Source: an uncultured Methanoregulaceae archaeon (GTDB lineage Archaea; Halobacteriota; Methanomicrobia; Methanomicrobiales; Methanospirillaceae). From it: a DNA stretch of 64,000 nt. The stretch spans positions 544,001-608,000 of the forward strand of contig CAWJAX010000003.1 of the NCBI GenBank assembly GCA_963841015.1, given 5' to 3'. The notes beneath the pieces were generated by a model, which ran no database searches, was not told the origin of the DNA, and was given only the letters and a program-made list of their open reading frames with translations. The first letter of the stretch is position 1. Each line of letters opens with the position of its first letter. Positions 5,830 to 62,127 of this stretch are shown in pieces. A program made the position numbers and the translations under genes.

Positions 5830-7111
5830 CTAATCTTTCACCATCACATTCGTACGTGTTGGTGATTCCATAACTTCCTTGAGTTCCGGTGCATCGGCCG
5901 GCAACGATGCCATTTTTCTGGCATACCAGGTGATGGCCGGGTTTGCCGAAATACCGTGTGCAAAGACACTGAATAAAACAGTTGTACTCACTACCACGGC
6001 AATGGTCTGCAATCCGGGTATGTCCGGGGCTTCGTTGAGCGTTATGAGCAGCAGGACAATCGAAGCCAGTCCCCGCGGGCCAAACCACCCGATGAACAGG
6101 ACTGAATCCGTTTTTAATCCGGTTTTTACTAAAGAAAGTGCTACCGGAAGTATCCGGATGAGGGTGAGACTCAGAACTGCATAGAGGATAACAATTTGAG
6201 TGATGCCGGACAGGAGACTTGCTGCAATTACCCCAAAGATGAAAAATACGCCAAGACTGAAAATTTCTCCATCGGTGGAGGTAAATTTTATGATCGATTC
6301 ACCGACTCCCCTGCCCGCGAGAGAGGTAGCCAGTCCCCCCACAAATGCAGCAATGAAACCACTTCCTCCCACCGCGGTTGCAGCAGCATAGGAAATCACT
6401 GCGAGGGCCAGAAAGCCAATCCACTGGAATCTCCCCCGCATCAATCCCTTTTCTATGGCCTTGTTGACGAGATATCCCCCTGCAAGGCCAACAATGAGTC
6501 CTACAAGAATGCCAAAACCTATCTGCTCAAGGGCAAATATGACCCACTCGCTGGCGGGAACAGCGAGGCTCTTCTGCCTGGGCAAGAACCAGAAAGAAGG
6601 CAAAAAACGGGATTGCTCCCCCGTCATTGAGTCCGCTTTCCACGTTCAGCGCCTGTCGTATGCTGGCCGGGACTTTTGGACTATTGACAATCATCTGGCC
6701 AAGTCCGGCATCTGTTGGTGCAAGAATTACTCCTATCAGCGCTGCTTCAGCCAGGGAAAGATCGGTAAAAAGCAGTATTGCTATAACTGCCCCTAAAAAA
6801 ATCGTCAAAGGAAGACCTATTCCCAGTAATCGCGATGGAAAACTCCAGTTTCCTTTCAATTTACGGAAATCCAGGCGGGATGCGTCAGAAAAAAGGATTA
6901 ATACCAGCGCAATTTCTGCAAATACCAGTATTAACTCACTATTTTCACTCAGGGGGATGATATCCAGTCCCTCCGGACTGACCAGCAGACCAATCGCCAC
7001 AAAGATCATCGGGGCAGTAACCATTGACCCTTCGAGGCGATGCGAGACAAGAGAATAGGCAAAAAGTGCAAGGGTAAAAATGATGACACCGATGAGGATC
7101 AGAGACAGCAT
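5830..7111 (-). CDS. CPA1/NhaP-type cation:proton antiporter, frameshifted near 6570
   Basis: LAPTDA, NVESGLNDG and WFGPRGLASIV motifs split over ORFs 6527..7111 and 5830..6627. Confidence 0.85.
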
Positions 7112-8805: not shown

Positions 8806-9441
8806 TTAGAGTTTTGGGAGCAAGGCGGCAGTTGAGCTCATAAATGCGATGATGACTGCAGACCAAAGACCCATAAGAATGATTACAAGAGTTACCGGTA
8901 TGAGTACAACCAGAACAGCTTTTCCGAGTTCCATTTCGTGGTTTTCCTTGAGACCAATAACCAGAAGGACGAGATACCAGATATACGCAATAATTGATAC
9001 AAACGGGATCCAGCCAAAGAGCAGAAACGGGGTTGCTGCGTACATCGTTGTCTTTATCGTCTGCCGGAAACCTTTCTCTCCACCCAATAGCAGGACAAAC
9101 GCATGGAAAAACAGACCCGAGACAAATATGCCTAACAGGCAAATGAGGAACACGAGATAGACAAAGAGTACTCCCAGGGCAATGACAAAGCCGGAGAAAT
9201 TCGCAACAGCACCCGCTGCAACGCCTCCGATGATTGGGAAGGCCCCCATCGTATCAACCATGGAGGTGAAGGCGGCAAGGCCCATGCTCACTACAACAAT
9301 TCCATACAGGACGGTGAAGATTACGAGGAGGGCTACATAATACTGGTAGGCTGCACCAAGGGATTTTCCGTTTGTTTTTTTAAAGGTCTCCGTGGGAGAC
9401 ATGAGGAATCCCTTCATTTCAGTCATAAAGTCGTTGAACAT
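8806..9441 (-). CDS. Yip1-family membrane protein
   Basis: L.SP.ETF N-terminus, GG...F.QT....Y..TP..L.GWIP, GL...H.....KA pattern. Confidence 0.8.
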   Translation of the reverse strand: MFNDFMTEMKGFLMSPTETFKKTNGKSLGAAYQYYVALLVIFTVLYGIVVVSMGLAAFTSMVDTMGAFPIIGGVAAGAVANFSGFVIALGVLFVYLVFLICLLGIFVSGLFFHAFVLLLGGEKGFRQTIKTTMYAATPFLLFGWIPFVSIIAYIWYLVLLVIGLKENHEMELGKAVLVVLIPVTLVIILMGLWSAVIIAFMSSTAALLPKL

Positions 9442-9561
9442 AATGGTTAAGATAACAACCACAAGGTATATAATACTTAACGTGTCAATCCGCAGAAAAA
9501 AGCGGGTTTTACTCCTTAACAATTCATCCGGGGTATTTGTTTTTTTAAAAAAAAGATACTA

Positions 9562-9762
9562 TCAGATAAGCCCGAAAAACACTATTCCTCCCGTTATGAC
9601 AAAGACAATCAGGATGACCACACCTATCTTGGTCTGGCATTTATGACATATTCCTGACGGGGTGGGGTGTTCAGGATAGACGTACTTTTCTTTACACAGA
9701 TGACAGGCAGCAGCTGGCTTTCCATCATCGTGTTTTTTTGAATCATGGTGTTTGGCACTCAT
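9562..9762 (-). CDS. Small protein with CxxC..CxxC motif and C-terminal TM helix
   Basis: MSAKHH...CHLC...GICHKC followed by a hydrophobic tail. Confidence 0.65.
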   Translation of the reverse strand: MSAKHHDSKKHDDGKPAAACHLCKEKYVYPEHPTPSGICHKCQTKIGVVILIVFVITGGIVFFGLI

Positions 9763-10242
9763 GGCTAGAGATAGGAAATAATCGGATATTAACATGAGTA
9801 TTGGTAAACGAGGTCTAACGCCAGAATCTCGAAGGAACGAGAGATATCCTGGAGCTCAATGTCGATAGATCGTGCCAGACACTGATGGGAAGGATCTCCG
9901 GGCAGATGGCTTGCTTTTCCCGGAATTTCCTTTCTGATTTCCCTTTTTTATTAATGCGAAATTGAGATCCGTACGAGCTCTGATAAACCCCTGTCTGATG
10001 CATTCCACTTGCAGTATTTACCTGGAAAAAGTGGTCCTGAAGAAAAAGCAATATTTCGCGTCATTCATAGAAGAAGAATTTTCCGATCTTTGCCTCAAAA
10101 CAGGTGTTCTTTTCCTGCTGACCGTGCTATCCCACCAGACCCTTGTAGTTTCGCCTCCCGATAGGTGCTATTAGCGGTGATTTTCTGCGTCGATTCAGCC
10201 CAGTATAGCCCAATTGGCTGTAGAATGGAGTATTCCGAAAAT

Positions 10243-12341: not shown

Positions 12342-13211
12342 ATGATACGGTAGTCATCGCACTCTCCCGGTTTTTGGGCGAAGCAGAACAGGTCGCAAAG
12401 TTTCTTGGCGCTGATGTCCGGTTGTATACCCCTACAATTTTTTCAAAGCTGTTTCCGAATACACGGCGGATTGTCGCAATCATGTCGATGGGAATTGTTG
12501 TGCGCAGGATCGCTCCTCTGATGAATAATAAATGGAATGATCCCGCGGTGGTCGTGGTGAGCCCTGACCTTACCTACGCCATTCCGGTTATCGGCGGTCA
12601 TCATGGAGCAAATGAACTCGCAAAAGAGTTGTCAGCACTGGGTATCCGGCCGGTTATCACAACAGCAACTGAAGCTGACCGGCAGGGATTCTGTTGAAGC
12701 ACTCGCTCAACGAAGCAAATGTGAGGTCGTTAACAGGGAGTCAACACGAAAGGTGAATGCCGCTATGCTTGACGTGGATGTCCCGGTTTTTACCGTGAAA
12801 GGTCCCGGCATAGTCATAGCAGGTTCAGATGTTTCCATCCTGTTAAAGAAAGGGGAATATACTGTTGGTGTCGGGTGTCGCAAAGGAGTGAAAAGCCAGG
12901 AAGTTATCGATGCGATACGCAAGGCACTTGAAGAAGCAAAGGTGGCAGAACACGAAGTACTGGTCTATGCAACAACGCAGAAGAAGAGTGGTGAGAAAGG
13001 ACTCCTCCAGGCAATCTCTGCCCTTTCTGGCAACTTGATATTCCTTGACGATGATACCATAAACGCTCATGGCGGGGTTACCCCGTCCCGGGCAACAAAG
13101 ATCGGGCTTTTGGGTGTTGCCGAGCCAGCTGCCCTTGCCGTCGCAAAAAGAAAACAGCTTGTCATGCACAAGAAAGTATACGGGAGAGTTACGGTTGCCA
13201 TCGCACACTGA
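12338..13211 (+). CDS. cbiG: Cobalt-precorrin-5A hydrolase, frameshifted near 12676
   Basis: GIVVR.IAP...K..DPAVVV, GGHHGANELA, VITTATE; second frame VGVGCRKG...GVAEPAAL...VTVAIA. Confidence 0.9.
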
Positions 13212-13980
13212 ACCAAAAAAAGGGAGCCTTGCCATAGTCGGTCTTGGGCCCGGACGCAGGGAATACATGACCCCCCGGGCACTCAAGGTAATAGCCTGCG
13301 CGGACTATGTGATTGGCAATGCCCTCTATCTTGATCCTCTTGAACCATTACTTTCGGGAAAAACCGTGATCCGGAGCTCGATGGGAAAAGAGGTTGAACG
13401 GGCGCAACAGGCAATCGATCTTGCCCAGTCCTCCGTGGTTGCGATCGTCTCCGGAGGAGATGCCGGGGTCTATGGCATGGCGAGCATCGTCCTTGAAGTC
13501 CTCGAACATTCCGGTGCTGAGATCGATGTCGAGGTGATCCCGGGTGTCACCGCGGCAAATGCTGCAGCATCAAGGATCGGATCTCCCCTGTCCGGTGATT
13601 TTGCAGTCATCAGTTTATCGGACCTGTTGACCCCGCTCGAGGTGATTGAGCAACGGCTTGACGCGGTCTTTTCAGTAGGGATCCCGGTAGTGCTCTACAA
13701 CCCGAAGAGCCGGGGAAGACCGCATAATTTTGCACTTGCCATAGCACATGCCCGCAAGTATCTTGGGGCAGAAACACCCATAGCAATCATCAGGAACGCG
13801 TTACGCGATGATGAAGAAGTGATCGTGACGACACTCTCCGACGTGGAAAAGGTTGAGAACGCTGTGGACATGCATACAACAGTAATTATCGGGGGAAAAG
13901 AAAGCAGGATATGGAGGATGGGTGACGATGTCAAAGGAATTATCACGCCACGGGGATACCACCACAAATACGTATATTGA
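13195..13980 (+). CDS. cbiH: Cobalt-factor III C17-methyltransferase
   Basis: VGLGPG, SGGDAGVYGMA, ISLSDLLTP, LYNPKS, VDMHT, TPRGY motifs; TTG start inferred. Confidence 0.92.
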   Translation: MPSHTEPKKGSLAIVGLGPGRREYMTPRALKVIACADYVIGNALYLDPLEPLLSGKTVIRSSMGKEVERAQQAIDLAQSSVVAIVSGGDAGVYGMASIVLEVLEHSGAEIDVEVIPGVTAANAAASRIGSPLSGDFAVISLSDLLTPLEVIEQRLDAVFSVGIPVVLYNPKSRGRPHNFALAIAHARKYLGAETPIAIIRNALRDDEEVIVTTLSDVEKVENAVDMHTTVIIGGKESRIWRMGDDVKGIITPRGYHHKYVY

Positions 13981-14590
13981 TCCCGGTGCTGAAACCAAAG
14001 AAGCCTACGAGATCTCGAAAAAATCGCGGACACTTGCACGAACCATGGTTGGTAATGCAAATGACGAAGACCGTGTCCGGCAGCGGTGTTCTATCGCCGT
14101 CGGTGATTTTGGCATGGCTGAACTTATGAGATTCCAGCGTGATCCTATTGCCGCAGCACTGGCTGCACTGGAGCAGAACGCACTCATTATCACCGATATC
14201 CGCATGGTGCAGGTCGGGATCCAGAAAAAGGGGCACGCAAGCGAAGTGCTGTGTGCACTTGACTTCGGAGCAGGGATCGCAAAGGAGCAGGGAATTACCC
14301 GGAGTTCAGCCGGCTTTCTTGCCCTCAGGGAAAAACTTGCAGGGTCGATCGTCGTCATTGGCAACGCACCGTCAGCACTCCTGTCCCTGTGCGAAATGAT
14401 CAAAGCGGGAATTCACCCGGCCATTATCATCGGAGCCCCGGTAGGATTTGTCAACGCAGCGGAGTCAAAGGAACTGCTCCGCACGAGTGATGTGCCTTCG
14501 ATTTCAACGGAAGGAACACGGGGAGGCACACCGGTTGCAGTTGCCGCCATGAACGAGTGCATCACGATATTTATAGAAAGGCACCACTGA
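13928..14590 (+). CDS. cbiC: Cobalt-precorrin-8 methylmutase
   Basis: TRS..G, VIGNAPSAL, GAPVGFVNAAESKE, G.RGGTPVAVA. Confidence 0.92.
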   Translation: MSKELSRHGDTTTNTYIDPGAETKEAYEISKKSRTLARTMVGNANDEDRVRQRCSIAVGDFGMAELMRFQRDPIAAALAALEQNALIITDIRMVQVGIQKKGHASEVLCALDFGAGIAKEQGITRSSAGFLALREKLAGSIVVIGNAPSALLSLCEMIKAGIHPAIIIGAPVGFVNAAESKELLRTSDVPSISTEGTRGGTPVAVAAMNECITIFIERHH

Positions 14591-15594
14591 TGAGAGATCC
14601 GGTCACCGGCTTTGATTATCCTGAAGCGTGGGTGAAGAAGTGTTCATCCCCGGATTTACTCCATCTTGCAGAGGAAGGGTTGGCAGTCCTTACTTCCTCG
14701 GGTACAGTGATCCGGCGCGGCTATACCACGGGAACAACCGCTGCTGCTGCCTGCAAAGCTGCCATTCTTTCTCTTTCCGGTGTTGTGACCTCGGTTCCTG
14801 TCCATATCCCCTGCGGGCTTGTAGTTTCTGTCCCGGTCTTTGCATTAGCCGGGAATGCCTCCTGTAAAAAATTTGCCGGAGATTATCCGGATGATGTGAC
14901 TGCTGATTGTGAGTTTATCGCAGAAGCAAAACCGTTACCGGAAGGAATCCGGTTTGTTCCGGGGGAGGGGATCGGGCGGTTTTCACGCGACACCCCCCGC
15001 TTCCGGAAAGGAGAACCGGCTATCAGTCCTGCTCCGCTGGAATGTATCCTCACCTCTATACAGGAAGCAATGGACCAGCAGGAACTTTCAGGTGTCCGGG
15101 TCAAGCTCCAGATCCCCCATGGTGTTGAGATTGCAAAAAAAACTCTTAATTCCCGGGTAGGTATCGAGAGAGGAATCTCCGTGCTCGGTACTACCGGTCT
15201 CGTCGAACCATGGGATGATCATCTTGAAGATGCTATGCGGGAACGCGTATCCACATCCCACGATGCAGTACTCACTACCGGTCGTATCGGGCTCCGGTAC
15301 GCACGCCTCCTCTATCCGGATCGTGATATTGTGCTCGTGGGCGGGAAAATCGGAGAAGCACTCGAAGCAGCCAAAGGAGAGGTGATCCTTTTTGGCCTCC
15401 CGGCACTCATACTGCGGTATATCAATCCGCTTATCCTCGATGGGACTGGGTATGCCACTATTGAGGAATTTGCAGGATCTCCCGCATTTGACCCTGCCAT
15501 GAATGCCAGCCTTATGCAATTCAAAAAAGACTACCCGCAGGTCAGGGTAGTTCTTGTGAACCGGAATGGTGTGATTATCGGAGAAAGCCCATGA
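14590..15594 (+). CDS. cbiD: Cobalt-precorrin-5B C1-methyltransferase
   Basis: RRGYTTGTTAAAA.KAA, K.AGD..DVT, TLNSRVGI..GISVLGTTGLVEP. Confidence 0.93.
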   Translation: MRDPVTGFDYPEAWVKKCSSPDLLHLAEEGLAVLTSSGTVIRRGYTTGTTAAAACKAAILSLSGVVTSVPVHIPCGLVVSVPVFALAGNASCKKFAGDYPDDVTADCEFIAEAKPLPEGIRFVPGEGIGRFSRDTPRFRKGEPAISPAPLECILTSIQEAMDQQELSGVRVKLQIPHGVEIAKKTLNSRVGIERGISVLGTTGLVEPWDDHLEDAMRERVSTSHDAVLTTGRIGLRYARLLYPDRDIVLVGGKIGEALEAAKGEVILFGLPALILRYINPLILDGTGYATIEEFAGSPAFDPAMNASLMQFKKDYPQVRVVLVNRNGVIIGESP

Positions 15595-43190: not shown

Positions 43191-43964
43191 TTATTCTGAT
43201 TTTTCTTGTCTTTCGTGCGCACGTTTTTGGATTATCTTAGCAAGATTCAGCACAGCAACACGGGCAGGACTGTCAAACGGGATCTGTGAAACCGGTGTGG
43301 CCGCAAGATCCGCGGTTTCGACGTGGGGATCATCAGGAATTATGGCTATAGGTTTTTCATTGCCAATATCAACCGGTGCAGTACCTGATTTGAAACGGTT
43401 GAAAACAATCTGAATTCGTTCCGGTTCAAGCCCAAGCTGCGTTGCGATATCCTTAATGCGGGCAATTGTACGCAATCCCCGTGCACCAGGATCACTCACA
43501 ATGAGCAGCATATCCGGTTTTCCGATCGTTCCCCTGCTGATATGCTCCATGCCAGCCTCTGTATCAATGATGATAAAACGGTAATCGCGCTCAAGCTGAA
43601 TCATACATTCTGAGAGCAGGTCATTGGCAAAACAATAACAACCGCTCCCCTCCGGTCGGCCCATTGCTACAAGATCAAAACCCTTCGCTTCGACAAGAGC
43701 CTGCCGAAACCGGAACCTGACATAGTCGTGGCGATTCATGCCCGGGGGAATATGACGGGTGAATGCTTCCTCCCGCATGCTCCCCAGGGTTTCGTGGACA
43801 GTAACACCCAGCGCTTCATGCAGGTTGGCATTCGGGTCCGCATCGACTGCAAGAACAGGAGTTTCTGCCAGATCAATAAGCGAATGGATCAGCAGTGAAC
43901 TGATTGTGGTCTTGCCGGTTCCTCCTTTTCCTGACAAGGCGATGGTAAAGGGATGTTTTAGCAT
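43191..43964 (-). CDS. acsF: CooC/AcsF-type nickel-insertion ATPase
   Basis: SGKGGTGKTT, DADPN.NL, MGRPEG.GCYC, DTEAGMEH.SR; last gene of the ACS operon. Confidence 0.88.
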   Translation of the reverse strand: MLKHPFTIALSGKGGTGKTTISSLLIHSLIDLAETPVLAVDADPNANLHEALGVTVHETLGSMREEAFTRHIPPGMNRHDYVRFRFRQALVEAKGFDLVAMGRPEGSGCYCFANDLLSECMIQLERDYRFIIIDTEAGMEHISRGTIGKPDMLLIVSDPGARGLRTIARIKDIATQLGLEPERIQIVFNRFKSGTAPVDIGNEKPIAIIPDDPHVETADLAATPVSQIPFDSPARVAVLNLAKIIQKRAHERQEKSE

Positions 43965-43993: not shown

Positions 43994-45035
43994 TTATGCT
44001 CCGGTTTCTTTATCCCGTATTCGTCGGGATATCTCAGCTGCGGTTTTCATGATGGCAAGGGAACCATTCCGGTCAGCAAAACGTATCCCGCAGCTGGGTG
44101 TGATGAGAGACTGTGCGTCAAAAAGGTGTTCCGGCATGCATGAGCATAGACGGGTCCTGATAGCAAGATACTTCTGATAGAGGGTTTCGAGGTTCTCGGC
44201 AGCAAAGATTTTGTATTCTGCCGGGACAATCCCCCATGCCACAACCCCACCCTGCTCCATATCAGCTTACAATGGAATCAGCGTACAGCAAAAATTCCTT
44301 TGCTGTTGCGTAAGCATCGACAGATACAACTGAAGGATTGAGCCCCAGCACAAATTCCCAGTCCGTATTCGAGCAGCAGTGTATCCCAAGCCCACCTTCA
44401 ACCAGTGCAGCAATGTCTTCCCAGCCTGCTCGTACGGTTTCTTTATCGACTGGCACCACTGAAGATCCCAGTGATGCAAGATATGGCTCATTCAAAACAA
44501 CGAGTGTTTCTGTAACGCCGGTTCTTTTTCTCATCTCACTCTCACACCATCGTGCCTTGAGTGCAATCATTTTCGACAGCACATCAGCAAGCTGCGTATC
44601 ATAGTAAATCGGGCGTTTGTTGGCATCGACAACCTGCATGCCAAAGGTGACCGGCCCGGTGACCTGGCATTTCAGCACCTTCGCATGAGACAGGGAATGA
44701 GACATCATTTCGATAAAACCGGATGCATATTCCTTATGCAGTCCGTAGGGGATGTAATTGCCCTCAACATAATCCATGTATACCTGTTCCATCGCCTCTG
44801 TCTGATCCGTTGTACTGTCAAAAAGAAGCCGGTCATCCCTGATGATCCTTCCTGGCAACTGCTCGGAATCATTAAAGACAATACTTTCCAGCTGACCCCG
44901 ATCCGGAAGGGTAGGCACATACGGAAACTCGGCAAAGATCTCCAGAACATCACTGCATGCTGCCGCCGGATCCGTATGGGGAAGCGCACCTACGCCGGTT
45001 GCCAGAGAGTGGGGAGATGGGATCATCTTTGCCAT
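43994..45035 (-). CDS. Core (folate-independent) methionine-synthase-like Zn methyltransferase, MesB-like, frameshifted at ~44262
   Basis: TGVGALPHTD, K.QVTGP.T, NEP, GIHCC.NTDW, S.DAY, AWGIVP, ITPSCG. Removing one base joins ...SIVS to (Y)MEQGG.... Confidence 0.8.
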
Positions 45036-45039
45036 AAAT

Positions 45040-46941
45040 TTACTTCCTCCTGAGCCGACAGGATTCGAGGAGTTTCTGGACCCTGGGGAACATGGTGAGA
45101 TCCGTGTGAGGTAAAAATGTACTTGAAGTGTACTCATCCATAAATGATGCCTCCGCATTCAGTTCGATGTACGCAATTTTACCGGCGATCTCATCGAGGG
45201 TTTTTCTCTCTCTCCGGTTAATAAGCGCAAGATTTGCGCCCGTAACTGCCCCGTTGCCGATATTTTTAATCCGATCTGCGTCTATCTCCGGGATCAGGCC
45301 AATAATTGTCGCATTTTTCTTGTCCAGATAATTGCCAAATGCACCGGCTACATAGATAGTAGCGATTTCGTGTCGGGTCACCCCCGCCTGTTTCATCAGC
45401 GTTACACAGGCAGCATGAATCGAAGCCTTGCTCATGATCAGGTTTTTGATATCATTTTCAGTGATTACGATATCTTTTCCGATATCGGTCTCACTGGCCC
45501 AGACTACAACATACTCCGGGAAATGAGGACCTGTGCGGATTCTTTTGTTTTCCAAGCTGGAATTTATCCTTCCGGTCCGGTCAATGACGCACGCTGAAAA
45601 AAGTTCTGCAACCAGGTCGATTAATCCGGATCCGGTAATGCCCCGTGGTTTGATGTTGTTTATTGTGCTGAAATGAGGATCGAGGGTCACGGGGTTGACC
45701 TCAATCTTCTCTATTGCACCGGGATTTGCCCGCATACCAAAGAGCACTTCACCTCCTTCAAGTGCCGGTCCGGCAGCACCGGCACAGGAAAACATCCATT
45801 CTTTGTTACCGAGCACAATCTCGAAGTTGGTGCCGATATCGATTAAAAGCGAGACCTCTTCGCGTTCATGCATACCGCAGGAAAGGATGTCAGCGATAAT
45901 GTCCCCCCCGATAAAATCGCTGACAGCAGGAAAGGCAAAGAGCCCGCTATTCTGATTAATGGCAATGCCAATCCTTGCTGCCGCTACAGACAGAGCCCGC
46001 TGAACTACCGGAACATAGGGCTCCGCGATAATATACGCTGGATCTATCCCGAGAAGCATATGCGTCATTACCGTATTACCAGCAACCACCACTTCATAAA
46101 TATCCTCACGGTCGATACCCGCGGTATTTGCAGCAGAGGTAAGTGCTGCATTGATGCTCTCTACAGCGAGGGCCTGGAGTTTTGTAAGCCCGTTTTTCCG
46201 GGCAAAATTCACGCGTGCGAGGATATCTTCTCCACAGCTGATCTGCCGGTTATAGTTCGAGGCAACAGCAACTACCTTGCCATCCACCAGATCCCAAAGA
46301 TAAACAACTACCGTCGTAGACCCGAGATCTATCGCAGCACCATAAATATGTTTTGAGGTATCATTCTCCTGGAGATCAATAAGGCGGTAGCCGCCCGGGA
46401 CGAGGGCAATTGTCCCGGTAACTTTCCAGTCACTATGACGAAGGAGTGTCGGGATTTCACGCATTACTTCAAGAGGTACATAAATTTTCTCTGCAACAGG
46501 CCCGCCACTTTTCTGGATACCCCATAAAAGCCGGGTGAGATCCGGTGATGGATCGGTGAGTGTTGGTGGCTGGAGCTCGACATAATATTTTCTGACAGAT
46601 GGATGAATCTCTATGCCGGTATCCCGGCCTGCGATCAGAATTTTTTGTTCCTGGATCAGGGTACTCTCGGGAACCAGAACCTGCAAATCGCCTTGCACTA
46701 TAGTTGTACAAGCAAGACATGCCCCTTTTTTCAGTTCATCCTCGTTAAAAAACTGCGAATATTTCTGCCGGTCAAATTCCGTTTTTCCTGATTGTACATA
46801 GACAACACACTTGCCACATTTTCCCTGTCCGCCGCAGACAACATTTATGTTCAGTCCTGCTCTCTGGGCAGCATCAAGAATAGTGCTGCCACGTGCTACG
46901 TCAATTTTGCGATAACTCGGAAGAAAGGTTACCGTGCGCAT
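45040..46941 (-). CDS. acsV: ATP-dependent reductive activator of corrinoid proteins (RACo/AcsV; 2Fe-2S plus ASKHA)
   Basis: CGGQGKCGKC...LAC, DLGSTT, N.Q...GEDI..R, GNTVM.H, DIGTN.E, AGPALEG, AGAFG. Confidence 0.92.
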   Translation of the reverse strand: MRTVTFLPSYRKIDVARGSTILDAAQRAGLNINVVCGGQGKCGKCVVYVQSGKTEFDRQKYSQFFNEDELKKGACLACTTIVQGDLQVLVPESTLIQEQKILIAGRDTGIEIHPSVRKYYVELQPPTLTDPSPDLTRLLWGIQKSGGPVAEKIYVPLEVMREIPTLLRHSDWKVTGTIALVPGGYRLIDLQENDTSKHIYGAAIDLGSTTVVVYLWDLVDGKVVAVASNYNRQISCGEDILARVNFARKNGLTKLQALAVESINAALTSAANTAGIDREDIYEVVVAGNTVMTHMLLGIDPAYIIAEPYVPVVQRALSVAAARIGIAINQNSGLFAFPAVSDFIGGDIIADILSCGMHEREEVSLLIDIGTNFEIVLGNKEWMFSCAGAAGPALEGGEVLFGMRANPGAIEKIEVNPVTLDPHFSTINNIKPRGITGSGLIDLVAELFSACVIDRTGRINSSLENKRIRTGPHFPEYVVVWASETDIGKDIVITENDIKNLIMSKASIHAACVTLMKQAGVTRHEIATIYVAGAFGNYLDKKNATIIGLIPEIDADRIKNIGNGAVTGANLALINRRERKTLDEIAGKIAYIELNAEASFMDEYTSSTFLPHTDLTMFPRVQKLLESCRLRRK

Positions 46942-47061: not shown

Positions 47062-48405
47062 TCAGGATTCAGGCTTCTTCCACTCCTCATGCAGATATTC
47101 TCCGATTTCTGCTGCATCGCGGGGTCCGACCATCACCTTCCAGCCGGTTGCTTCTTCAATCCTGCCTGACAGCGGTGCGGAATAGCCCGGGATAATCAGC
47201 GTTTTGTGAGACACTTCCTGCTCGACACTAAATTTCCTGATCGAATCACGCACCAGCGTTTCATTCAGTTTTCCTGCAGCTACCGCAGTCAGCACTGAGA
47301 GACCTTCTGTGTCGACAATCAGCATAAAACAGGGAATGCGGGTGGACTCCAGGTAACCCTGGAGAGTAAAAAATGTCAGAGAGAAATTCACCGTCAGGAG
47401 AACCGGGGCATCTTTTCCCGGGGTTCCTACACGGTACAGTCCGGGATTCATCTGGATCGGTTTCTGGGGATCCGTGTAAATGTTCTGGCGAAGCGTCAGG
47501 GCGGCTTTGGCGGATGCAGGGGAAAGCGGCTGTGTAATAATTACCGATGCATATTTAACGATGCCCAGTGCGATTTCAGCATCCTGAAGAGGAGGCTGTG
47601 TGGCATCCATAAACACGGGATACCCAAGATCCGGTACTGTACGCGTGATTGCCAGCTGCCGGACAGAGGTTGATGTAATAACAAAATCACCAAGGGATTG
47701 CGGGCAAAGATCCATGACCAGTTTCTTTACCCCTTCACCAACACAGTTTTTTACAAGACAGGTAAGGTTCTCCAGTCCATGAGCCTTAATGACAAGAGGA
47801 CAACTGTGTTTTTTGGCGAGAGCACATATTTCCCTGAAATTTTCATTCGTGGCTGCGTGAAGCAGGGGTTGATAGCTGCCGACCTGAATAAGAGCCTCAT
47901 TAAACGCTTCGATATTCCTTGATATCAGCACGAGAGGGAGATCTGCTGATTCCTCGACTATGGCAACAGCTCGTGCGAATACATCCGGTGAACCGCTGGT
48001 ATTTTCAATTGCAATACCATTAAACCGCAGATCGGTGCCAATACGGGTGAATGATTCGTCCCTGACCCTGACTGTTACCGAAGTGATCTCTTCAGGTGAC
48101 CAGGTATCTGATACCCTGAAGAGGATCCCCGGAGGATGATAGAAGGTCTTGTCATGGCGGTAAAGCACAAATTCCTCACCAACAGCAAACGACCGTTCTC
48201 CCACACCAACGTTAACCAGCTGTATGGGGGGCCGCGTGGTTGCACCCAGCACAGACTTTGCCTGTTCGTCAAGATACGGGCAGAGATCCACATCCGCTTT
48301 TCCGCTGGCGAGCTTCATCGCAAACGTAAGGCAGGTGGGATCGCCACATTCCTTGCAGTTCTTTTTCGGCAGAAGTTTGTAGACATCAAGTGCTTTGAGC
48401 GCCAT
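47062..48405 (-). CDS. acsC: Corrinoid iron-sulfur protein large (gamma) subunit
   Basis: LPK.NC.ECG.PTC..FA...CP, RQNIYTDPQKP, T.NFSLT, GLSVLTA.AAGK, IIPG, VGPR.A. Confidence 0.95.
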   Translation of the reverse strand: MALKALDVYKLLPKKNCKECGDPTCLTFAMKLASGKADVDLCPYLDEQAKSVLGATTRPPIQLVNVGVGERSFAVGEEFVLYRHDKTFYHPPGILFRVSDTWSPEEITSVTVRVRDESFTRIGTDLRFNGIAIENTSGSPDVFARAVAIVEESADLPLVLISRNIEAFNEALIQVGSYQPLLHAATNENFREICALAKKHSCPLVIKAHGLENLTCLVKNCVGEGVKKLVMDLCPQSLGDFVITSTSVRQLAITRTVPDLGYPVFMDATQPPLQDAEIALGIVKYASVIITQPLSPASAKAALTLRQNIYTDPQKPIQMNPGLYRVGTPGKDAPVLLTVNFSLTFFTLQGYLESTRIPCFMLIVDTEGLSVLTAVAAGKLNETLVRDSIRKFSVEQEVSHKTLIIPGYSAPLSGRIEEATGWKVMVGPRDAAEIGEYLHEEWKKPES

Positions 48406-48407
48406 TG

Positions 48408-49364
48408 CTATTTCACCTCTGAAAAAGCCGCAACGCTTCTCATGTCAGTAAACGCTTTTTTTAGCAAACCGACCGTTTTTGGATGACGGACACAGATAAT
48501 CTCGGCACCGGCAACGGCAGCGGCAATCCCCGTATAAAATTCCCACTGGATGGCCATCTCATCCTGCAGGGCAGGCTCAGATTCCCTTACTTCTTTTATC
48601 GTAAGTGAATCGATAGCAGAACAGATTACCGGCATGGCAAGATCGGTGTCCCCTTTCAGTGCAGAAAACCTGATCCGCTCCATGGCTGAATAGGAATATT
48701 CAAACCCATAACCGAGTGCACCGGTATAGGGATCGATCATAATATGATCGTGTTGCACCCCAATCTCCCTCAGCAGGATATTGAGTTGCTTTGCGAGGTT
48801 GACATCAATGGGAGACTGGGCAATTAGTGAGTGGTTATAGGCAAGAGCTGCTGCTGCAATACTCCGGTACCTTCCTGCCTCGGCGGTTCCCAGGAGAAGT
48901 CTTTCTCCCTGGCCGGTCTCACCACACTTCAGAAAAACCTCGCTGTCGATTTTAGGTTCATTGCTCCCTTCAATGATGAGCGGGAGACCGGTCGCTGAAA
49001 GCACGGCTTCCACGGTTTTTCCGACAGTGGAAACATCAGCAAAATTCCGCTGTCGTGTACTGGTCAGGTAAAGGCGAACCAGATCCGCCTTGTAAACCGT
49101 TTCAGCAGCCTTCGCCCAGTCATGCACATTATTTACCAGATCGCCACAGTAATTTCTGATGATCGGCGACCAGTATTCCGGGTTATCGCAGATTTCTAAT
49201 GCTACAAGTGGTGATGTAGATGCTGGGTTTCCATCAAGGAACGGGAGGGTTGTTCCCCCACCTATGCGGTAAGAAATGGATCTTGTTCCCCCTTCTGCTC
49301 TGGTGGCTCCAAGAATTACCTGACCGATAGCGCCATTCCAACCAAAATTAAGATCATATCCCAT
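48408..49364 (-). CDS. acsD: Corrinoid iron-sulfur protein small (delta) subunit
   Basis: GG...LPF, SPIDVNLAKQLN, DP.TGALGYGFEYSYS.MERIR..AL.GD, RHP. Confidence 0.93.
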   Translation of the reverse strand: MGYDLNFGWNGAIGQVILGATRAEGGTRSISYRIGGGTTLPFLDGNPASTSPLVALEICDNPEYWSPIIRNYCGDLVNNVHDWAKAAETVYKADLVRLYLTSTRQRNFADVSTVGKTVEAVLSATGLPLIIEGSNEPKIDSEVFLKCGETGQGERLLLGTAEAGRYRSIAAAALAYNHSLIAQSPIDVNLAKQLNILLREIGVQHDHIMIDPYTGALGYGFEYSYSAMERIRFSALKGDTDLAMPVICSAIDSLTIKEVRESEPALQDEMAIQWEFYTGIAAAVAGAEIICVRHPKTVGLLKKAFTDMRSVAAFSEVK

Positions 49365-49373
49365 ACTATCTCC

Positions 49374-51404
49374 TCACACGAGCGGTTTCATCTGGAGTGC
49401 CGGATGTTTTACCCGTTCAAGGTAGGAGATCAGGTCTTCAATAGAGGTCGCATTTGTCTCATCCGCGATCTTGTCAAAGAGATCCGGTTTATTCTTGATC
49501 CATAAGTTTTTTTACCAGCTGGTTTTTCAGCTCCTCTTTAGCTGGAAAGGCATCCAGACAAGGCGTTCGATGCCTCCGTCTCCCTGCAGGAACCGGTCGG
49601 AGAGAATATAGTTTTTTGAGATGCCGGCAAATCCCGGTGTCTGAGCCCCACCGCCAATAGTTCCGGCAAGCGTTGAGAACGTCATCCCCGAGGGGGTGAT
49701 ACCCTTAAATTCCCGGTTGACTATCATGATCCCGTTCACTTCGGGAAGCATCAGGGCGATACATTCAAAACAGCCACAGCACGTCATCGGGTATTCCATC
49801 ACACTATACAAAGAGCAGCGGTCAATCTCGCCGTGACTTGCCTTTTTAACAAATTTGTTGACTCCTTCAAATTCCCCGTTCTGGGTGTTTATGACCGCTC
49901 CCTTTTCGATCGGCTGATTGGCACCGGAGGGTGCTATCTCATAGGCAATTTTTCCATCCAGCCAGCTTATCGCCCCGCAGAGAGCGGGGTGTTCAGGAGT
50001 GATAACGCAGACATGGTTGGGGGCAAAGGTCTGGCAGAGCGTGCAGGAATAATAGGTGTTCACCTCTGCATCCCGCATTCCTTTGATGCGTGCATCCCGC
50101 TCTGCATATACCCTCTCTGCATCTTTTTTTGCTGCCAGCACCTTTGCTTCATCGGTAATAAGCGTAACAGATACTGCATCAAGAAGCTTGGGGAAATCCA
50201 TGCGGAACTTGCTTGCCAGCAGCTTACCGATATGCTCAATTTTTACCCCTTTTGCGACGACCTCTCTGGAGATTCTCACCCAGATGATATCCCGCTGGGC
50301 AACATGCCAGGATCCTTCCCCATAATTTACAAAATTATGGATCCGCCGCTCAAGAACCGGTTCGTAATCTTTTTTCATCGTCTTCCCGGCTACATCGATG
50401 ACTATTGCAAGCGGGTAGGCACCACCCTCCTTCATCATGTCAATCTCAGGACCGATAACGGTCACCTGACCGTCGGTTATCTCGTCTGCGGAACGCATGC
50501 GCAAAAGTTCAAAGGCAGGAGACCGTCCCCCGCCAAATTCGACATACATCTCCTCTTTCCGGATGCTCTTTCCCTCAAATGCAGGTGAGCACCCCATAGG
50601 GATGGGGATGGCAGTCACATTCACCTTTATTCCTTTTTGCTCCATCCCCTGACGCACAACCTCTTCAGGAGTTGCGGGTATCCAGTCGCCTCCCTGATAA
50701 TCCCCGAGTGACAGGATGGGAAAACCAAGGACTCTCATCCCATCAACCAATGCAATTTCCTGGTCAGAAAGCCCGGGAAATGCAATCACAATCGCTTTTG
50801 CCCGTTCCTTGGCGTACGCGAGAAGACGGGATAAATCACCCGGAGTAACACCCCCAAACATCATTGCAACCCGTGCAATGACATCGACAAAATGAATCCC
50901 GTATGCCGGTGTCGAACCAAGCGGGATAAGACGATATTCGAGTCCGAGCTTCACTCCGGCATGGGAAAGGGATTTGACAATATCGCCTGCAAGGAACGTA
51001 AGCATGTATTTTTCCTGCAGTTCCCGGCAAACAGCAGAAACGCTGTCTGCACCCGGGGGGGTGCCAACAACAAGGGCAAGCCCGAGGATACTGCCATCAA
51101 CAAGGGAGTACCCAAGTTTCCGGATTATGGTGTCATCGATAAAACCGGTATAAGGAGCAGGTTCCCTGCCTTCAGCTGCTGTTTTCTCCGCAAGAATGCA
51201 TTCCGATGCAACGAGGGGATTACCATCAGTCTTTCCAAACACGGCAAGTGCTGCTTTCTGGTCATGAACAGCTATTCCGGTAAGCGCAAACGAGATGGGC
51301 AGGTGATAGGCGGTTTCGTCATAAGAAAGTGAGTGTCTGATTGTGGTGAGCATCGTTTTAAGGTGAGTTTCACCGTTTTTTTTCGCTATTCCCAAATCTG
51401 TCAT
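49374..51404 (-). CDS. acsB: Acetyl-CoA synthase, bacterial (AcsB) type, about 676 aa; two compensating indels near 49500-49540
   Basis: A-cluster ligands YSCTLCQTFAPNHVC...LCGA...PMTCCGCFE; N-terminal TAYHLP/TGF..D domain; manually read C-terminus DKIADET.AT..EDL..YL....HPALQMKPLV* ends at 49374. Confidence 0.93.
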
Positions 51405-51815
51405 AGAATTATTCCTTCTGATTATGGGTTGCCCGGTAGTATTGATATAGTTTCGTCAAAGGGTAAGCCAGTATTTTTTTCCTCCCAGACGACAATTCAC
51501 CAGCAATTTGGTGATAACAATAGGTATCATCTCTATGCTAGCCTGTTTAACAAGAGAGTTGATAGTGAATATTTTACACAAAAATATCTATTTTTCCTCT
51601 TATCATGGTCCTGGTATTGGTAGCTGTCATTCAACCGGTGCTCGTATTATCTACTGAACGCAGGAGACAATAAAAAAAATAAGTGCGTTTTTTCGTTTTT
51701 CAGGTAATTTCTCCGTTCATGTTTGAAAAAAAGAGATATCCTGAATAATTATGATTTCTACCGTAATGTATATCGGAACTCCCATCCAAAGTTAAGGCAC
51801 ATCCGGTGGACATCT

Positions 51816-53327
51816 TTGAAGAAATTCTCCTTTATCGCCCATATGCCAGATACTCCGGGATCCCTTCACCGGGCTGCTGAGATCATCAAAAAATATGAAG
51901 GTAATATTAATCGTATACAGTATGATCGGCGCATTGACCCCGCAACCGTGTTTTATGAAGTTACAGCTTCACAAGAAGCGTTCAGGGAAATTACCCGGGA
52001 TCTTGCACTGATCGGGTATCTTCAGACGTCATTAAAACCTCAGGACTTTTTAAAGTTCTGTGTTTATCTTCCGCACCAGCCCGGTGCTCTTTATGAATTC
52101 CTGAATATTACAACATCGGTGGGAGCAAACATAGCGTTTATTGATTTTGATGATAAGGGAAGACACCCCGATCGTCTCACCGTAAGCCTGAACCTTGAGC
52201 AGAGTTCGGTTGTCGACCACATTTTAAACAAGCTGAAATCATGCTACCGTCTCGAAATCCTTGAATATGACACAACCGGAAAACACCTGGATGATACGGT
52301 TTTTTATGTCAGGTATGCCCAGGCAATACGCGAACTTATCGGGGAGTCAGAAGAAAATTTTTTACTTTCATTCCTTGCTGATACAAATCACATCGTACAG
52401 GAGCTGATGGCACAGGGGAATGATCCACGGAAAGTTTTTGAGAGTGTTCTTATAACCGGCAAGACGATGTGGGCGACAACCCGGGACAGGTTCTATGCAG
52501 ATGTCCAGAAATTTCAGATTACTGAACAATGCACCCTTTTTTGTTTCCAGGTCCCCTGTGGAGGGAATATTTTTTTGATTGCTACAGCCGAAGAAAAAAT
52601 CCTGATCGATACCGGTTACGGCATATATCACCATGACGTTCTGTCAATGCTTTCGCGGTATGGTCTTGGAGATGAACGGCAGGTATCGCGGATCATTGTC
52701 ACTCACGCAGATGCGGATCATTGCGGAGCTGCAGGGTATTTCACAGCACCGATTTTCATGCATGAAGATACTCTTGCAATCATAAAAAAGAACAACCGTG
52801 CATTTGGCTCCCGGAGCGAACATTCTATCCTTGAAGAGTTTTATACCAAGATGATCAACCTTTTCTCAAAGTTCAATACCCCGGCCAACGTAGTATGCTT
52901 CTCCCAGCAACCGGTAACGATGCGGGGAATTTTTCCGGTAATTGGTCTGGTAAGAATCGGAGATCTTGAACTGGAAGTCCTGGAAGGTCTTGGAGGCCAT
53001 ACCTGTGGACAGATCTATCTTTATTCCCGAAAAAATGGGCTGCTGTTCGCTGCAGACAGTCTGATCAACTTTTCGAGTCTCACAAAAGAGCGTGCTGAGT
53101 ACAGCTCACTTGCTGCTTTTCTTGTAACCTCGGTAAACGTGGACAGCGAACTGGCAAAAAAAGAGCGAAGAGCACTGCTTGAAATTGCTTTTGAAACTGA
53201 TAAGGCCATGTCAGCCACGGGCAAACGATGCCTTATCTGCGGAGGTCATGGAGCTGTATCAGTTCTTGAAGAGAACAAGCTTTTTTCTTATGGAACTGTT
53301 GAGCGCTATCAGCCACATACCCCATGA
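51816..53327 (+). CDS. Tandem ACT-like domains fused to MBL-fold metallo-hydrolase
   Basis: MPDTPGSLH.AA.II....GNI and LPHQPGALY..L......GANI (ACT-like); IDTGYG, THADADHCG, GGHT.G, GGHG (MBL). TTG start inferred. Confidence 0.78.
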   Translation: MKKFSFIAHMPDTPGSLHRAAEIIKKYEGNINRIQYDRRIDPATVFYEVTASQEAFREITRDLALIGYLQTSLKPQDFLKFCVYLPHQPGALYEFLNITTSVGANIAFIDFDDKGRHPDRLTVSLNLEQSSVVDHILNKLKSCYRLEILEYDTTGKHLDDTVFYVRYAQAIRELIGESEENFLLSFLADTNHIVQELMAQGNDPRKVFESVLITGKTMWATTRDRFYADVQKFQITEQCTLFCFQVPCGGNIFLIATAEEKILIDTGYGIYHHDVLSMLSRYGLGDERQVSRIIVTHADADHCGAAGYFTAPIFMHEDTLAIIKKNNRAFGSRSEHSILEEFYTKMINLFSKFNTPANVVCFSQQPVTMRGIFPVIGLVRIGDLELEVLEGLGGHTCGQIYLYSRKNGLLFAADSLINFSSLTKERAEYSSLAAFLVTSVNVDSELAKKERRALLEIAFETDKAMSATGKRCLICGGHGAVSVLEENKLFSYGTVERYQPHTP

Positions 53328-61039: not shown

Positions 61040-61157
61040 AAAAAATGAGTTTTAGGGTAATCACCGGGTAATTTTCGGTAATAATAGGATAGAATCAATG
61101 ATATTATTTCAAATCTGATTGATTTACATAATAATTAAAAATTCACAAAGGAACCTT

Positions 61158-62127
61158 ATGCCCAATGAAGCTTCTCATCCTTTGATCAGCGTTATTGTTG
61201 TAAATTACAATGGGAAGAAATTCTTATCAGATTGTTTCAATTCCCTCCTTCACCAGACATACAGGCCGTTTGAAATGATAATGGTTGATAATGCTTCAAA
61301 CGATGGCAGCGTTGGATATGTTCAAAAGAACTTTCCTGATGTAAAAATATTCACTCAATCCACTAATCTGGGGTTTGCCGGGGGTACGAATGTCGGAATA
61401 CGGGTAGCAAAAGGCGAGTTAATTTTCACACTCAACAATGATACGATTGCAGACTCACACATGCTTGAAGAAATTGTTCGACCCATGCAATTGGATTTGT
61501 GTGTGGGGGTATGCGGTTCAAAGATGCTCCTGCCCGATGGGAGGATCAACTCGACCGCAATCTGCATCTCACGGAGTGGAGTGTGCATGGGACCGGGGCA
61601 TGGGTGAGCCGGATCGTGGTCAATACGATTTACCAGAAGAAGTGTTCGGAGCCTGTGCGGGAGCGGCGCTCTACCGGCGCTCAATGCTTGAAGAGATCGG
61701 GCTCTTTGACGAGGACTTTTTTCTCTTTATGGAAGATGTCGATCTTGCATTTCGTGCACAGCTGTCGGGGTGGAAGTGTATGTATGTACCTTCAGCACGG
61801 GTCGTTCATATTCATGGGGGAACATCAGGACCTGGATCAGATATGGCAGTATATTATGGGAACCGGAATTTATTTTGGAATGTAATCAAGAATTTTCCCT
61901 TAAAGACACTTCTTTTTTCAAGTCCTTGGATAATTGGAAGGAATTGCGCAGACATTCCGTATTATATCTTAAAAGGCAGGGGGCTTTCAATCTTTCGTGC
62001 TAAAATTGATATGATGAAAGGAGTGAAAATGATGATGAGAAAGCGTCAGAGTGTTAAAAAGAAGGTATCCGATGAGACAATTGAATTATCAATTAGTTTT
62101 TGGAGCAGGGGCCGTACAAAAAAATGA
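61158..62127 (+). CDS. GT2 glycosyltransferase (rhamnosyltransferase-like), frameshifted near 61585
   Basis: VNYN, VDNAS.DGS, NLGFAGG.N, LNND; second frame GA...Y...G.FDEDFF...EDVDL..R. Confidence 0.87.

Follow-up and report, generated by a model that had tools for sequence, protein, structure and literature searches.

A MesB-lineage protein of a methanogen acetyl-CoA synthase operon departs from the homocysteine-binding residues of its family and may methylate another thiol

What does a MesB-like methyltransferase do inside an acetyl-CoA synthase (ACS) operon of a methanogen, and which thiol does it serve? The question is raised by a minus-strand gene, here called mes (protein, Mes), of a Methanoregula-like methanogen. 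It lies in a 64,000-nucleotide stretch of an uncultured Methanoregulaceae genome (GCA_963841015.1, contig CAWJAX010000003.1, positions 544,001 to 608,000), which we refer to as the window and whose own numbering is used below. A sequence-only reading had proposed that this protein keeps the zinc site of methionine synthases, carries Ala and Asn at two positions that contact homocysteine, and may act on a thiol lacking an amino-acid head. We tentatively favour, from comparison of sequences, a corrinoid iron-sulfur protein (CoFeSP)-coupled thiol methyltransferase that would have lost its homocysteine specialisation, with coenzyme M (CoM) as the leading candidate substrate.

All five motifs reported earlier (TGVGALP, LNEP, IHCC, S.D and TPSCG) were located on the minus strand, and the codons GCG for Ala17 and AAT for Asn182 had been read correctly. 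Translation from 45035 downwards gives MAKMIPSPHSLATGVGALPHTD..., VVLNEPYL, GIHCCSNTDW and SVDAY, followed by TGA at 44264-44262. The region 43994-45035, previously taken as one gene, spans 1042 bases, which is no multiple of three: the motifs are real, but a frameshift at 44263 had been overlooked, and the frame opened at 45035 closes at this TGA after 257 codons, with TPSCG in a separate open reading frame (ORF) of another frame. One surplus base, a G on the minus strand at 44263, generates the TGA and places TPSCG out of frame; deleting it regains a homologue-like reading. The parts of the gene are as follows.

44262..45035, minus strand: 5′ part of mes, 257 codons and the premature TGA, with Ala17, Asn182, His219, Cys221 and Asp240; 98% identity to the closest database homologue (P0001)
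44263..44263, minus strand: frame-breaking extra base, G, identified from the sequence, from homologues and from contigs of other runs
43994..44260, minus strand: 3′ part of mes in the shifted frame, 88 codons and TAA, with TPSCG and the fourth zinc ligand, Cys315
44985..44987, minus strand: Ala17 codon GCG (motif TGVGALP), aligned with Ser433 of E. coli MetE and Ser15 of the characterised MesB
44490..44492, minus strand: Asn182 codon AAT (motif LNEP), aligned with Asp599 of E. coli MetE, Asp188 of 3RPD and Asp177 of MesB
44381-44379, minus strand: His219 codon (motif IHCC), zinc ligand
44375-44373, minus strand: Cys221 codon (motif IHCC), zinc ligand
44318-44316, minus strand: Asp240 codon (motif S.D), zinc ligand
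44092-44090, minus strand: Cys315 codon (motif TPSCG), zinc ligand

Database homologues of Mes are uninterrupted proteins of about 346 amino acids in which SIV(R/S)YMEQGG spans the position of the break; P0001 is an intact 346-residue protein that reads SIVRYMEQGG there.

We assigned the protein by the rule given by Price et al. 2021, under which a MesB scores at least 130 bits against DET0516 of Dehalococcoides mccartyi; the same text lists the zinc positions of DET0516 (214, 216, 235 and 311) and its homocysteine positions (15, 69 and 177) (PMC7857596). As a stand-in for this characterised MesB (DET0516, Q3Z939) we used a 342-residue protein from another genome (G253), chosen by the seven published residue coordinates, all of which it matched (S15, W69, D177, H214, C216, D235 and C311); it reads TMIGSMPHTD and IIFVDEP in the two homocysteine motifs. 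P0001 scored 196 bits against it at 30% identity (phmmer), and the first window ORF alone scored 152 bits. Because 196 bits exceeds the 130-bit threshold, the window's Mes is a MesB by the published rule as applied to its sequence, and within the core methionine synthases (core-MetE-like) its lineage is that of MesB. The earlier description of a MesB-like protein with retained zinc ligands stands. Mes shows the bit score, the zinc ligands and the AcsC and AcsD of the host organism that go with MesB, and lacks the homocysteine contacts equivalent to Ser433 and Asp599.

Family databases returned little. Pfam returned no match at E 0.001 or below for either window ORF, and none at E 1 or below for P0001; PF01717 (Meth_synt_2) matched 14 of 72 Mes relatives weakly (best E 2.5e-5), and the window protein fell below its gathering score. 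NCBIfam held no family for the Mes protein, which is uninformative on membership since the G253 MesB protein likewise had none above cut-off. Searched against the PDB, the single protein gave chance-level matches only, and the family profile returned only MesD 3RPD (E 0.27), with dEP aligned to FDEP. A profile of the 72 Mes relatives matched the genome's own MesA with an hhalign probability of 97.4%, pairing Asn182 with the IDEP Asp, His219 and Cys221 with H.C, Asp240 with Glu and Cys315 with Cys.

The AlphaFold model (predicted local distance difference test score 96.1) is a predicted MetE-type (beta/alpha)8 barrel with the zinc ligands at strand ends. It superposed on MesD 3RPD with Z 26.3 and a root-mean-square deviation (rmsd) of 2.9 Å over 284 residues, and on MetE catalytic domains with Z about 25 (Foldseek E 6e-8 for the model). 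The closest structures were those of MetE and MesD (1XDJ, 3BQ5, 1U1H and 3RPD), with Z 24.4-26.3, an rmsd of about 3.0 Å over 284-293 residues, and DEP and H.C motifs that align with those of Mes; the proteins differ in that identity is 12-16%, Mes has neither the folate-binding N-terminal barrel nor a PF01717 match, and its homocysteine contacts are replaced. The UroD family yielded no Pfam or NCBIfam match for Mes, and its fold was more distant, with Z 20.0-20.1 to MtaA (4AY7/4AY8) and about 20 to UroD, below the 25-26 to MetE.

We then tallied residues in the full-length orthologues of species-representative Methanomicrobiales genomes, 62 in all; the window's broken copy and two copies at contig ends were dropped. 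The zinc ligands His219, Cys221, Asp240 and Cys315 were each present in 62/62. At positions 17 and 182, the pair was Ala/Asn in 39 orthologues, Gly/Asn in 6, Ala/Ser in 6, Ser/Asp in 5 and Ser/Ser in 2, with one each of Ala/Gly, Ser/Asn, Ala/Asp and Gly/Ser. The Ser/Asp pair, found in 65 of 71 bacterial relatives, was thus lost in 57 of the 62 archaeal orthologues. Alignments confirmed that Ala and Asn stand where MetE, MesD, MesA and bacterial MesB have Ser and Asp. The finding that had been set up to overturn this view, a validated MesB with Ala/Asn, is not borne out, since the protein matching the seven MesB coordinates has Ser15 and Asp177. As for conservation of Ala/Asn in the acs-linked clade, the pair in 39/62 orthologues is no private error, yet five keep Ser/Asp and position 17 drifts. 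Ala17 was present in 118 and Asn182 in all of the best 120 matches, a nearly all Methanoregula-like sample that exaggerates this uniformity; 129 distant representatives carried Ser in 119 cases and Asp in 123.

Four further residues separate the archaeal proteins from their relatives. W40, Q42, M52 and Q55 were each found in 71/71 bacterial relatives and in the G253 MesB, and in 0/62 archaeal orthologues. Position 52 was Ile in 62/62 orthologues and position 42 was Thr in 57/62, and Phe180 was kept in 1/62. Many of the clade-wide changes exchanged a large residue for a small one: W40 became V/I/A, F180 became V, M52 became I and Q42 became T. We also observed two cysteines, Cys123 and Cys164, which were invariant in the best 120 matches and present in 48/62 and 46/62 of the archaeal clade, where bacterial relatives have Gly and Gln.

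In a tree of 82 rows, archaeal Mes formed a single clade on a long branch (Shimodaira–Hasegawa-like approximate likelihood-ratio support 100). With bacterial rooting, three of the four Ser/Asp rows fell outside a well-supported 33-row group of mostly Ala/Asn or Gly/Asn proteins, and the fourth was nested among Methanoregula rows. Coupled change of positions 17 and 182 could be followed in 2 independent pairs only, which gives the test no power. The most economical history has two stages: the common ancestor of the archaeal clade acquired a changed pocket or interface, and most of the descendant lineages afterwards gave up the two homocysteine contacts. Given Ser/Asp in 5/62 orthologues of the same operon and the drift of position 17 among Ala, Gly and Ser, the two positions look freed from constraint, not recruited for a defined new ligand. 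Separately, two sister sequences amid Ala/Asn Methanoregula proteins (loci L034, match at 9001-10032, and L033, 989-2020) both have Ser17, and one of them also has Phe180 and Asp182, an apparent reversion to the bacterial states.

We compared selection on mes with that on its neighbours across 12 Methanoregula loci. The median ratio of nonsynonymous to synonymous divergence (dN/dS) of mes was 0.085 (dN 0.152), and those of the five neighbouring genes were 0.058-0.081; these ratios are rough because dS was saturated (about 1.6-1.9), a reservation that also counts among the points against the favoured reading. Purifying selection acts on mes much as it does on the neighbouring genes. The amino-acid divergence of Mes equals that of acsC and acsD, which together with the invariant zinc ligands argues for a working enzyme, as far as sequence evidence goes.

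The gene is the fifth of an operon on the minus strand in the order acsB-acsD-acsC-RACo-mes-cooC. Its other members are as follows.

49527..51404, minus strand: acsB, long bacterial-type acetyl-CoA synthase (NF040764, 847 bits, cut-off 800)
48408..49364, minus strand: acsD, CoFeSP small subunit, short bacterial-like form (NF003376, 356 bits)
47062..48405, minus strand: acsC, CoFeSP large subunit (NF003195, 538 bits)
45040..46941, minus strand: RACo/AcsV, reductive activator of the corrinoid protein (found in 37/39 archaeal loci)
43191..43964, minus strand: cooC-like nickel-insertion ATPase, last gene of the operon (CbiA/AAA_31)

RACo stops 4 bases ahead of mes, and the mes stop is followed after 29 bases by the start of cooC. 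The same order was found, within contig reach, in all 39 archaeal loci (from Methanoregula, Methanosphaerula, Methanolinea, Methanoculleus, Methanofollis and Methanospirillaceae), with RACo upstream of mes in 37, cooC downstream in 38 and acsB in 33. No flanking gene beyond the six was conserved across genera in these loci. Among 41 bacterial relatives (mostly Chloroflexota, 32-38% identity), 40 had no acs-operon genes in the fetched flanks. Within the window's genome, acsB is the only CdhC-domain gene, and acsC and acsD are the only two CdhD-family genes; no carbon monoxide dehydrogenase (CODH) gene was found in the ACS cluster or beside acsB. RNA contigs of one run (X15) cover parts of cooC and of the 3′ part of mes, which is no proof of transcription.

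In bacterial CoFeSP/ACS operons the corresponding place is held by AcsE, the methyltetrahydrofolate:CoFeSP methyltransferase. Here mes is the only methyltransferase gene of the operon, which contains no AcsE; the genome as a whole has none, since its only pterin-binding (PF00809) protein is dihydropteroate synthase. AcsE differs in belonging to the unrelated pterin-binding family PF00809, and a zinc-thiol enzyme in its place would use a sulfur compound, not a pterin. A role of Mes as functional substitute for AcsE, as the sequence-only reading suggested, is conjectural.

Several further features were noted around the operon. Some Methanoregula loci, though not the window, contain an additional ORF of about 307-372 amino acids with a hydrophobic N-terminus, an unrelated membrane ORF, between acsC and RACo (L021 3835-4953, L022 5831-6760, L023 6029-6952). 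A divergent neighbour of acsB in the window (51723-53327, plus strand) combines an ACT domain with a metallo-beta-lactamase fold and is not operon-linked in other genera. A cobamide biosynthesis run (12603-15594, plus strand; CbiG C-terminal domain, tetrapyrrole methylase, CbiC and CbiD) lies about 30 kb from the operon.

We surveyed 151 Methanomicrobiales genomes of at least 90% completeness for mes and for MesA. The mes gene was present in 65, all of which fall within the 73 genomes with a CdhC domain; of the eight mes-negative CdhC genomes, seven had short archaeal CdhC only and one, a 91%-complete assembly, had the long type. Among 301 sampled genomes of the phylum, the close Mes clade was confined to Methanomicrobiales families. 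As a separate observation, many Methanoregula genomes have a long bacterial-type AcsB beside mes and a short archaeal CdhC elsewhere, and the window's genome has only the long type. MesA was present in 150/151 genomes; the copy in the window's genome (G000:C5:314741-315592; 393 bits, cut-off 258) has Ser, Gln and Asp intact. For methionine, Mes is redundant with MesA. The two proteins share the core-MetE fold and zinc-thiolate chemistry, and they differ in that identity is only about 23% over half the length, MesA uses Glu in place of Asp as third zinc ligand and keeps Ser, Gln and Asp for homocysteine, and MesA has no acs linkage.

How might these features fit together? Zinc enzymes of the MesB lineage transfer methyl groups between a methylated corrinoid and a thiol activated by zinc. 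The corrinoid partner of Mes would be AcsC/AcsD, encoded just upstream, maintained by RACo and presumably shared with a CODH-less AcsB. In the genomes searched, the six-gene module is confined to Methanomicrobiales, whose methionine already comes from MesA. The founding lineage of the archaeal clade would have replaced four residues that never vary in its bacterial, methionine-forming relatives; later, most lineages would have lost the Ser and Asp by which homocysteine is held at its carboxyl and amino groups (Ala17 and Asn182 in the window). Mes would then connect a thiol that has no amino-acid head with methyl-CoFeSP and, by way of ACS, with the methyl group of acetyl-CoA. The data show the family, the fold, the operon, the residue pattern, the selection and the co-occurrence with MesA; we infer the partnership with CoFeSP, the change of thiol, its identity and the direction of flux.

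CoM is the most plausible candidate for this thiol. Of the thiols in these cells it is the abundant one, and on our own geometric reasoning its sulfonate may lie at the site of the homocysteine alpha-carbon and its substituents, where Asp would repel it and Asn or Ser could provide a hydrogen bond. MtaA and MtbA (methylcobamide:CoM methyltransferases of the UroD family; 4AY7, 4AY8) are zinc TIM-barrel enzymes that pass a methyl group from a corrinoid protein to a thiol. Their superfold is also that of Mes (Z 20.0-20.1), and they would be its functional analogues if the substrate is CoM; they differ in belonging to another family, in a structural match below that of MetE and in showing no sequence-level match. 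A complex prediction that paired the Mes family with residues 312-446 of AcsC, its corrinoid domain, gave a score of 0.12 and a mark of 0.32, which speaks neither for nor against binding.

A number of observations weigh against a CoFeSP-coupled methyltransferase with a changed thiol. We found no enzyme assay in the literature on any Mes of the archaeal clade. Ser/Asp is kept in five orthologues of the same operon, and one lineage nested within Methanoregula has apparently regained Ser, Phe180 and Asp; on both counts the operon may still be one that makes methionine. With Asn or Ser at position 182, a hydrogen bond to an amino group is still possible, and the variation of position 17 among Ala, Gly and Ser resembles relaxation rather than a new specific contact. 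None of 18 changed family-conserved positions became Lys, Arg or His, as might perhaps be expected for sulfonate binding, and W40, Q42, M52 and Q55 may line either the thiol pocket or the interface with the corrinoid protein. Furthermore, Price et al. file the acs-linked methanogen genes as MesB and predict methionine synthesis (PMC7857596).

The main rival is therefore that Mes is still a MesB-type methionine synthase, moving methyl groups from the neighbouring methyl-CoFeSP to homocysteine, with Ser-to-Ala and Asp-to-Asn tolerated since backbone amides and other residues hold the amino-acid head; this is quite possible, though we lean against it. Mes and the D. mccartyi MesB/core-MetE (DET0516, cbdbA481), a methylcobalamin:homocysteine methyltransferase, are of the same lineage (30% identity, 196 bits, well past the 130-bit rule) and of like length (about 343-346 amino acids), with an intact His-Cys-Asp-Cys zinc set common to both. 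The Dehalococcoides enzyme has been put through complementation of an E. coli metE metH mutant given B12 (PMC7005905). Their hosts also correspond: that of MesB has AcsB, AcsC and AcsD, with CoFeSP as the proposed methyl donor, and the link to an acsCD operon is already in print, in Price et al. (PMC7857596). The same source describes the third homocysteine contact as variable within MesB anyway (PMC7857596). The five Ser/Asp orthologues, the small residue at position 17 and the polar one at 182 agree with this rival as well. Against it, MesB has Ser15/Asp177 where Mes has Ala17/Asn182, and the pair falls from 65/71 bacterial relatives to 5/62 archaeal orthologues; the four bacteria-invariant residues (W40, Q42, M52 and Q55) are gone in 62/62. 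Mes also differs from MesB in its place inside an acs operon, which 40/41 bacterial relatives lack, and in forming a well-supported archaeal clade on a long branch. Its genomes also carry MesA, with 150/151 genomes of the order having it, and a second synthase would be unneeded. In fungal MetE (Candida Met6), an Asp-to-Asn change at the same position reportedly abolished activity.

A bolder version of the CoM proposal treats the operon as a self-contained, Mtr-independent shunt between the methyl-CoM pool and acetyl-CoA, in which Mes would exchange methyl groups directly between CoM and the bacterial-type CoFeSP that serves the CODH-less ACS; we consider this rather unlikely. Two genome papers describe what ACS does in Methanospirillum as undefined or unclear (PMC4704411, PMC11346949), and the shunt would explain why Methanospirillum and its relatives have such an ACS. 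If it were true, hydrogenotrophic Methanomicrobiales could make acetyl-CoA from methyl-CoM and free CO, or could cleave acetyl-CoA derived from acetate cryptically to methyl-CoM and CO.

Another alternative is that Mes acts, as a thiol or thioether methyltransferase, on a small sulfur compound other than CoM (sulfide, methanethiol, dimethyl sulfide, methylmercaptopropionate or coenzyme B), draining methyl groups from CoFeSP or feeding them in for acetyl-CoA synthesis. We regard it as unlikely, and what chance it has lies mostly within that given to the thiol-change proposal as a whole, since both share the premise of a non-homocysteine substrate. The same residue and operon evidence applies to it, and the large-to-small changes could widen the pocket for a bulkier substrate; a smaller substrate, on the other hand, should shrink the pocket, and no methylated-sulfur transporter or other such gene is conserved beside the operon.

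It remains to account for the broken frame. Base 44263 was absent from every covering contig of three other metagenome runs (X1 2/2, X2 3/3 and X3 1/1), and was the sole indel over 2 kb between the window and near-identical contigs of these runs. The source genome (2.28 Mb, 5 contigs, 94% complete) has other split genes too. Among the 65 mes-bearing genomes of the order survey, internal stops occurred only in the window's copy, and two more copies end at contig ends; in an earlier draw of relatives, mes was also in pieces in two low-completeness assemblies of few contigs. Because the base is missing from the contigs of other runs, other genes are split in this assembly and mes is intact in other genomes, an assembly error is the most likely origin of the extra base. 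That the window's copy is a true pseudogene, and the family a redundant relic being lost, is very improbable: the in-frame TGA and frameshift, the dispensability of mes for methionine given MesA and the patchy module (65/151 genomes) would fit, but the other runs and split genes just described, the intact copies elsewhere in the 151-genome set (bar the two at contig ends), the dN/dS of about 0.085 near those of the neighbours and the zinc ligands kept in 62/62 orthologues stand against it.

Two further split genes of the same genome, and a possible third, are recorded here. A Na+/H+ exchanger in the window (5830-7111, minus strand) consists of two overlapping ORFs covering Pfam profile positions 3-161 and 173-373, another assembly frameshift; two overlapping ORFs at 61119-62127 (plus strand), both matching family-2 glycosyltransferases, may be a further case. 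The cooS gene (TIGR01702; G000:C4:38208-39870), encoding the genome's only catalytic subunit of an anaerobic CODH, lies in two frames far from the ACS operon.

We found no usable statement in the literature of a role for the ACS/CoFeSP module in Methanoregula, nothing usable on methionine labelling from acetate in Methanospirillum, and, among papers on MesA/MesB, core methionine synthases and the Methanoregula ACS/CoFeSP, none stating the residue losses of the archaeal clade. New here are that the exceptions concentrate in the operon-bound archaeal clade, which also lost further residues invariant in MesB, that MesA is present in 150/151 sampled genomes of the order, and that the Mes clade is under purifying selection.

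A bacterial-type ACS/CoFeSP module is present in about four in ten of the Methanomicrobiales genomes sampled (65/151), beside or replacing the archaeal Cdh complex, and its sole methyltransferase is filed in print as a methionine synthase. The findings turn its thiol and the direction of carbon flow into a testable question. If the thiol is still homocysteine, two textbook contacts would be dispensable in MesB. If it is CoM, carbon assimilation and methane formation would be joined in these methanogens of peat and sediment by a link that is absent from current pathway maps.

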